64,000 nucleotides of DNA from Sphyrna mokarran (taxonomy: Eukaryota), in contig JAGIQG010000012.1 of NCBI GenBank assembly GCA_024679065.1, positions 87,172,001 to 87,236,000 of the forward strand, in the 5' to 3' direction. Made by a program: the position numbers and the translations under genes. Below are positions 14,550-14,894 of this stretch, one piece after another (position 1 is the stretch's first letter; every line of letters begins with the position of its first letter). Below the pieces are notes generated by a model that was given only the letters and a program-made list of their open reading frames with translations, had not been told where the DNA came from and did no database searches.

Positions 14550-14894
14550 TGGTTACATTCAGCAGTGTCCCCTTGCCACTGATATCTCCCCACACTGAGC
14601 AGTAATAGACGGCAGTGTCACTGGGCTGCACCATGGAGATTGTCAGAATGAAGCTGTTATTGGAGGTGTCTCTGGAAGACTGGAATCGCTCAGTGAAACC
14701 TGGTCTCCGGGTTATGATGTTCGGTGGATCATCTACTAAAACAATCTCCTTATCTTTCCCAGGTAGCTCCCGGTACCAGGAAACAAGAGTGTGTGTCACT
14801 GCGGCGTTCCTCAGGGTGCACTGTAACCGGGCAGTCTGACCCTCTGTGACACGTTCCGCACTCGGAGACTGGATAACGACTGGAACATTCGCAC
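14550..14894 (-). CDS. Gene A V1 exon, V-set Ig domain with fused J-like segment (ANVPVVIQSP...LQC...SWYRE...DTAVYYCSVWGDISGKGTLLNVT)
   Basis: 345 nt, phase 1-1, AG/GTAAGT. Canonical B-strand Cys, C-strand Trp, DxAxYYC, GxGTxLxV. Overlaps ORF 14431-14799. Confidence 0.95.

Follow-up and report, generated by a model that had tools for sequence, protein, structure and literature searches.

Why do two V exons of Sphyrna mokarran differ almost solely in one short patch when the DNA beside them is nearly identical? The pair lies in a window, meaning here the whole stretch of 64,000 nt that was analyzed (contig JAGIQG010000012.1, positions 87,172,001-87,236,000, forward strand), and consists of exons 14550-14894 (gene A) and 52830-53174 (gene B), both on the minus strand, 345 nt long, with AG..GT borders and phase 1, each encoding a 114-amino acid V-set domain. 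A preliminary description had regarded them as two versions of one first V exon (V1), with differences confined to the CDR1- and CDR2-equivalent loops and due to diversifying selection, patchwork exchange among paralogs or both. We favor, with fairly good confidence, the reading that the gene A exon is a mosaic with a distal-type 5' part and a spacer-type 3' end, likely generated by unequal recombination, and that the patch was likely built by diversifying selection on a predicted ligand-binding face.

The exon pair differs in one patch and shares one flank

The nucleotide counts of the preliminary description were reproduced: positions 13741-14700 differ from 52021-52980 at 9 of 960 nt and 14701-14800 from 52981-53080 at 22 of 100, and in the stretch after this divergent patch only 3 of 100 nt differ (14801-14900 versus the continuation of the second block). 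Recounting at the protein level likewise placed 14 of the 16 amino acid differences in one patch, within residues 34-63. A density of 22 differences per 100 nt was reached in 0 of 100,000 shuffles, over the exon alone or over exon plus flank, and the clustering is beyond chance.

The near-identity claimed for the flanks, in contrast, stands only for the 3' (downstream-intron) side. Homology stops at 14901/53181 and the 5' flanks are unrelated, so that only the downstream intron is common to the pair, and divergence in this shared flank rises from 1.0% beside the exon (9 of 899 nt) to 6.7% farther out (59 of 878 nt; Fisher P = 7.6e-11). A collapsed assembly as the source of the flank identity was ruled out because the copies are 1-7% apart; the window also contains no N gaps. 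Nor are the exons two versions of one V1, since the gene A exon directly follows the leader and that of gene B is the second V exon of its gene, with a conserved spacer-type sequence.

Both exons are mosaics of distal-type and spacer-type sequence

The predicted layout of the genes is a leader, at least one variable distal V, a conserved spacer V (plus another V), a neutral transmembrane (TM) segment and a tail with tyrosine motifs. A DNA search of the genome gave 17 matches, all on the contig of the window and corresponding to 14 exon copies, 12 of which were kept (2 lie inside a 12.46-kb inverted duplicate, and two further partial DNA matches were also omitted). Compared with the distal exon at contig position 87277685, the gene A exon differs at 0 nt in residues 30-41, 2 in 47-64 and 13 in 99-114; compared with the spacer exon at 87264263, the corresponding numbers are 4, 15 and 1. 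Its 34 informative sites are distal-like at 20 of the first 22 and spacer-like at all of the last 12 (max-chi, 0 of 20,000 permutations). The introns follow the same division, the leader intron of gene A being colinear with that of the distal exon at 94.6-96.0% and its downstream intron with that of the spacer at 95.8%.

In gene B, the leader, first V and intron match the plus-strand gene just left of the window at 95-99%, and exon 52830-53174 switches to the same 3' type as the gene A exon, so the first comparison was one between two recombinants of the same 3' parent type. A mosaic structure is also seen in two other exons (runs test, 0 of 20,000 each), which together with the pair brings the recombination signal to 4 of 12 distinct exons, for five triplets picked by eye rather than by exhaustive scan. 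A domain of Scyliorhinus torazame (P0038, domain 2) also joins a distal-type C-C'' segment to a spacer-type ending. The V exon at contig 87,388,004-87,388,707 carries a distal-type C'-C'' tract (12 sites) inside a spacer-type exon and has a 359-nt insertion near the second cysteine. The proposed patchwork exchange therefore survives in altered form, as crossovers within the V exon that swap 5' and 3' halves together with their introns and as at least one internal tract (in that third exon), but not as a patch dropped into identical paralogs. The patch itself appears to be mostly a pre-existing difference between distal and spacer exons.

Table 1. Mapped features of genes A and B and the neighboring gene, in window coordinates
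Feature	Position	Strand	Remarks
Gene A, leader (signal peptide) exon	21334..21385	-	ATG to GT donor, phase 1; matches leaders of shark homologs
Gene A, remnant of 17-bp minisatellite before splice acceptor	14912..14960 (approximate)	-	common to distal and internal exons, absent before 52830
Gene A, V exon	14550..14894	-	single-exon VJ-type mosaic: distal-type 5', spacer-type 3' end
Divergent patch, residues 34-63 (BC loop, C, C', C'C'' loop, C'')	14704..14792	-	22 differences vs 52830, 2 vs distal exon at contig 87277685
Inferred crossover interval, gene A exon	14593..14710	-	framework 3, no informative sites; triplet test, switch at exon nt 184-303
Downstream intron tract	13651..14549	-	~1% from gene B copy vs 6.7% farther; probable recent homogenization
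Gene A, second V exon	11427..11773	-	another V class; 1-nt frameshift near 11500
Gene A, transmembrane exon	11110..11260	-	uncharged
Gene A, small cytoplasmic exon	7890..7933	-	
Gene A, last cytoplasmic exon	6789..6911	-	ITIM-like and ITSM-like tyrosines
Gene B, candidate leader	~4.4 kb past window end		
Gene B, first V exon	57828..58181	-	third V class
Gene B, second V exon	52830..53174	-	spacer type; mosaic, 5' part and upstream intron like gene left of window
Inferred crossover interval, gene B exon	53005..53050	-	triplet test, switch at exon nt 124-171, 4/20,000 permutations
Gene B, transmembrane exon	44993..45143	-	
Gene B, first cytoplasmic exon	44224..44267	-	
Gene B, second cytoplasmic exon	42638..42681	-	
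Neighboring family gene ending in window, last exon	460..576	+	ITIM/ITSM-like

The mosaic seen in the gene A exon points to a probable recombination event between a distal and a spacer V exon, which would account for both the sharp patch and the shared flank. The near-identical frameworks of the two classes would permit mispairing. If the first distal exon crossed over with a spacer exon in framework 3, the intervening exons would be lost and the remaining order would be leader-[hybrid V]-V-TM, as in gene A. Another crossover, retaining that 3' type, may have produced gene B, and the pair would then be common only on its 3' side, about 1 kb of which was likely renewed by later conversion. In the germline and independently of RAG, such events would over time shuffle C, C'-C'' and FG segments from one V domain to another. 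In distal and internal V exons, the splice acceptor is immediately preceded by a 17-bp minisatellite of variable copy number (L030:1093-1283, 2052-2481), which could promote mispairing.

Gene A is probably damaged. A counterpart of the first cytoplasmic exon of gene B was not found in it, and skipping its second V leaves leader-V-TM in frame, with the remaining tail exons, on our reading of the splice phases, out of frame. As assembled, it is thus predicted to be unable to make a full signaling receptor, and it probably represents a copy in decay or, at best, a decoy without a tail. Gene B has no V exon of the second class of gene A, and no ITIM exon of its own was found downstream in the region searched.

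The divergent residues cover the CC'C'' face and evolve under probable diversifying selection

Residues were placed on an AlphaFold model of the V domain of the exon (pLDDT 94.8). The claim that the differences are confined to the CDR1- and CDR2-equivalent loops proved too narrow: in the model only 4 of the 14 patch residues lie there (34 and 36 in BC, 56 and 57 in C'C''), but 8 lie in strands C, C' and C'' (38, 41, 50, 51, 53, 54, 59 and 61) and 2 at strand edges (48 and 63). Aligned with antibody V domains, several differing sites presumably correspond to front-sheet and antigen-contact positions by antibody numbering. A PDB fold search gave the domain a TM-score of ~0.9 to antibody V domains; sequence and fold searches of the PDB matched antibody- and TCR-type V domains and yielded no family assignment, and the neighbors in an Atlas search were generic V-set proteins, one of them named SIRB1 (score 0.94).

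The same V class occurs in nine named shark species (48 of 100 proteins), where some of its domains are conserved spacers and others are variable and, as a rule, more distal. At residues 33-63, within-species variability reaches 0.41 among the 36 distal domains compared and 0.11 among the 49 spacer domains, a contrast that is partly built in because the motifs defining the two classes overlap this region. Within the Sphyrna genome, distal and spacer exons are 0.06 apart in the framework and 0.50 in the face, whereas the distances between the Sphyrna and Mustelus spacers are 0.12 and 0.14, respectively. This closeness of the frameworks would fit either homogenization or a recent derivation of distal exons from spacers. 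In the assembly, serine replaces the first Ig cysteine of the spacer exons at contig 87,264,263 and 87,274,410; a probable RNA run has a TM exon joined to an ending that resembles the one of 87,274,410.

Selection on the patch is supported across the family but not by the pair alone, whose patch holds 20.5 nonsynonymous and 1.5 synonymous differences (pN 0.29, pS 0.07; P = 0.079 versus neutrality), a nonsynonymous excess relative to the rest of the exon (Fisher P = 0.03). A tree-free count over the 12 exons gave 39 nonsynonymous to 4 synonymous changes at residues 29-63 (ratio 2.95, P = 0.017), compared with 43:20 in the remaining residues (Fisher P = 0.005); the ratio was 1.57 (P = 0.12) when the FG loop was included and 1.71 (P = 0.084) for a site set picked from other sharks. 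A codon model gave a best omega of ~4 for residues 29-66 (LRT P = 0.0011), ~3 for 48-66 (P = 0.035) and ~1 for the frameworks, values to be read with the knowledge that internal recombination can inflate omega, that dead copies are included and that the tested segment was partly suggested by the data. Moreover, in distal domains from other sharks variability is higher at the 16 sites that separate the pair (0.458 versus 0.238, P = 1.4e-5). We conclude with moderate confidence that diversifying selection has acted on the CC'C'' face, wider than the two CDR loops and the predicted ligand-binding face of the domain, and this selection likely explains why distal and spacer faces differ.

The mosaic could be real and the divergence of the face merely relaxed constraint in decaying copies, a view we judge unlikely. 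The framework omega of ~1 implies that some exons of the set are dead or under relaxed constraint, many copies carry damage (frameshifts, stops, the 359-nt insertion, the first Ig cysteine lost in two exons) and some site sets miss significance. Relaxation, however, predicts an omega near 1 and an even spread of changes, and what is observed is clustering on one face (0 of 100,000) with omega ~3-4, at sites that vary in the distal, and not the spacer, domains of other sharks.

Assembly and public sequencing runs

The hybrids might alternatively be assembly chimeras, in which paralogs were mis-joined across the identical framework-3 stretch. The cluster is indeed hard to assemble: a 12.46-kb inverted copy (contig 87,258,207-87,270,669 versus 87,345,606-87,358,069) is 99.95% identical, with both copies ending at 100-N gaps, and may be an assembly duplication or collapse. 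The hybrid junction of the gene A exon is bridged by no contig of four public runs, and the contig of run X1 over position 11500 has a base that the window lacks. Against this, the window has no N, the identical stretch is merely ~120 nt long, private differences from the nearest copies (1-7%) occur on both sides of the gene A exon, three pieces of run X1, 98-126 nt long, match the 3' region of gene A with 0-1 differences, and a similar hybrid is annotated in another shark, the S. torazame domain described above. We therefore consider a chimera quite unlikely.

The evidence from public runs consists of assembled contigs, which neither confirm nor deny the hybrid junction or the frameshift. Contigs of the probable RNA run (X24, a guessed assignment) show V-V, V-second V class and V-TM joins at exon borders of family members; a long one has spacer-type loops, and none carries the loops of the gene A exon. 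A DNA run labeled with another organism contains a distal-type patch (139 nt, 11 differences), which is thus not private to this assembly.

It is very unlikely, and largely refuted by the flank switch, that the two exons are recent full duplicates whose loops alone were altered by point mutation under positive selection or by one short conversion tract: the patch differences are mostly nonsynonymous (20.5 of 22; Fisher versus the rest, P = 0.03) and an internal tract does exist in exon 87388004, but the 5' flanks are unrelated, the patch and whole leader intron of the gene A exon are found elsewhere in the cluster at 95-99% identity, and the two exons hold different positions within their genes.

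The cluster, viewed over ~660 kb, is bordered by a nicotinic receptor alpha gene on one side and a DUF4772 (ZNF395-like) gene on the other, with MCM3 and an IL-17 gene nearby. More genes of the family form a second group ~500 kb away (contig 87,872,001-87,992,000), past the ZNF395-like, MCM3 and IL-17 genes, and one gene of that group has a different, YxN-type tail; a genome-wide protein search listed no V match in the ~256 kb between the two parts (87.616-87.872 Mb). Other large V-domain clusters with 28-41% identity (C772 at 7.9-8.9 Mb; C994; C1548 at 81-82 Mb; C1082) are probably Ig/TCR and NCR3-type loci. Within the window, positions 16600-32000 and 43300-60700 are dense in interspersed repeats, LINE-like by recurrence, and simple tandem repeats occupy 2838-3563 and 62755-63326.

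The genes belong to a family of sharks and rays with single-exon VJ domains

Strands A-G and a J-like end resembling GxGTxLxV are all contained in the 345-nt exon, with the GT donor directly after, and no exact RSS heptamer or nonamer was found near the 3' end of either exon. A rearranging Ig/TCR V segment was ruled out on these three grounds. A tblastn search with 16 homologs found no C1 exon in the mapped genes, which contain only V, TM and tail exons.

Among the 100 protein homologs listed, the named ones come from sharks and rays, the closest listed being from Mustelus (89%); all carry automatic names, some of them after SIRPalpha. The homologs have tandem V domains followed by a transmembrane segment and tails with tyrosine motifs. 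A TM follows the last V in 77 of 103 proteins, with a charged core in 0 of 77, and across sharks and rays the tails are ITSM-like in 32 of 77, ITAM-like in 19 and both in none; in the part of the Sphyrna cluster examined, no ITAM-like tail was found. Two cysteines are present in 238 of 273 aligned domains, four in 4 and more than four in 0. Three proteins of basking shark and bamboo shark (P0001, P0002 and P0003) have 6-9 tandem V domains, an expansion of the exon array in other lineages. All matches of two tail searches (7 among 198 candidates and 18 among 72) were to proteins of sharks and rays, at a limited sensitivity that does not show absence in other vertebrates. The comparison with pathogen-driven paired receptors drawn in the preliminary description may hold in so far as the family looks, from its predicted tails, like a set with inhibitory-type and ITAM-like members. 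A description of the family was found in no title or abstract of the open-access literature searched, although supplementary gene tables of shark papers could list it, and the family seems undescribed.

Relation to known receptor systems

NITR genes are clustered, with a single-exon V and a J-like end, species-specific diversification, ITIM tails and many pseudogenes, and are defined by a membrane-proximal I domain with six cysteines, according to bioRxiv 10.1101/2021.06.11.448072. The shark cluster shares with them the gene clustering, the single-exon VJ without rearrangement and the combination of variable distal and conserved proximal domains, but differs in having no six-cysteine I domain (0 of 273), up to nine tandem V domains and an uncharged TM in 77 of 77. 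The SIRP ectodomain is V-C1-C1 and its tail bears tyrosine motifs resembling ITIM and ITSM; the region of the shark cluster may be paralogous to the SIRP region. SIRP, listed in PMC11599192 among the joined-VJ IgSF, is like the shark genes in its VJ-type distal V domain and ITIM- plus ITSM-like tail. Unlike SIRP, the shark genes have no C1, all mapped extracellular exons being V.

NCR3/NKp30 has a single VJ domain plus a TM with a charged residue, whereas the shark family is mostly multi-V, with no charged TM core (0 of 77). NCR3/NKp30, PRARP and UrIg all resemble the shark cluster in their single-exon non-rearranging VJ domain and antibody-like fold, yet have one V, or V and C1 domains, and the shark genes no C1 exon. 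They are linked to the MHC or the antigen-receptor complex (for UrIg, PMC12227049); the neighbors seen within ~660 kb of the shark cluster are the nicotinic receptor alpha, DUF4772, MCM3 and IL-17 genes. In UrIg2, repeated domains are homogenized by conversion (PMC12227049).

Skate MDIRs are multi-gene activating and inhibitory receptors (PMC3031540). The shark family resembles them as a multi-gene set with predicted activating and inhibitory members, and it has ITAM-like or ITIM-like motifs in the receptor's own tail. This own-tail arrangement is known from carp NILT, and V domains of the CD300 type have an extra cysteine pair. That pair is absent from most shark domains (four cysteines in 4 of 273), which also differ from MDIR and CD300 in their J-like end, MDIR being compared by description only.

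Siglec, CEACAM, SIRP and KIR clusters undergo conversion, unequal crossing-over, fast change of the GFCC'C'' face and gene birth and death. In the shark cluster, unlike these, the exchange would involve distal and spacer exons that belong to the same V class of multi-V genes, with breakpoints between CDR-equivalent segments. To judge from the gene models, the shark family would work like NITR, SIRP and other paired-receptor clusters and yet lack the domains that define them.

Significance for shark and ray immunity

Other receptor clusters provide well-known examples of the process, recombination together with selection on a binding face; the family seems to be the uncharacterized part. The cluster is a fast-evolving set of single-exon VJ genes across sharks and rays, it supplies candidate NK or myeloid inhibitory/activating receptors of sharks, and the patch marks residues at which ligand binding could be tested. 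The search for relatives of the ancestor of antigen receptors is actively directed at intact single-exon VJ genes (PMC12227049). We put forward, tentatively and as a possibility that we think rather less probable than not, that these genes form an undescribed, non-rearranging, all-VJ family throughout sharks and rays, with inhibitory and ITAM-bearing members, whose germline repertoire would arise as tandem V exons exchange their CDR1-, CDR2- and CDR3-equivalent segments. If true, sharks and rays would have an innate diversification system that resembles that of antibodies, and the VJ gene split by RAG would have a new living relative outside the known MHC-linked genes.
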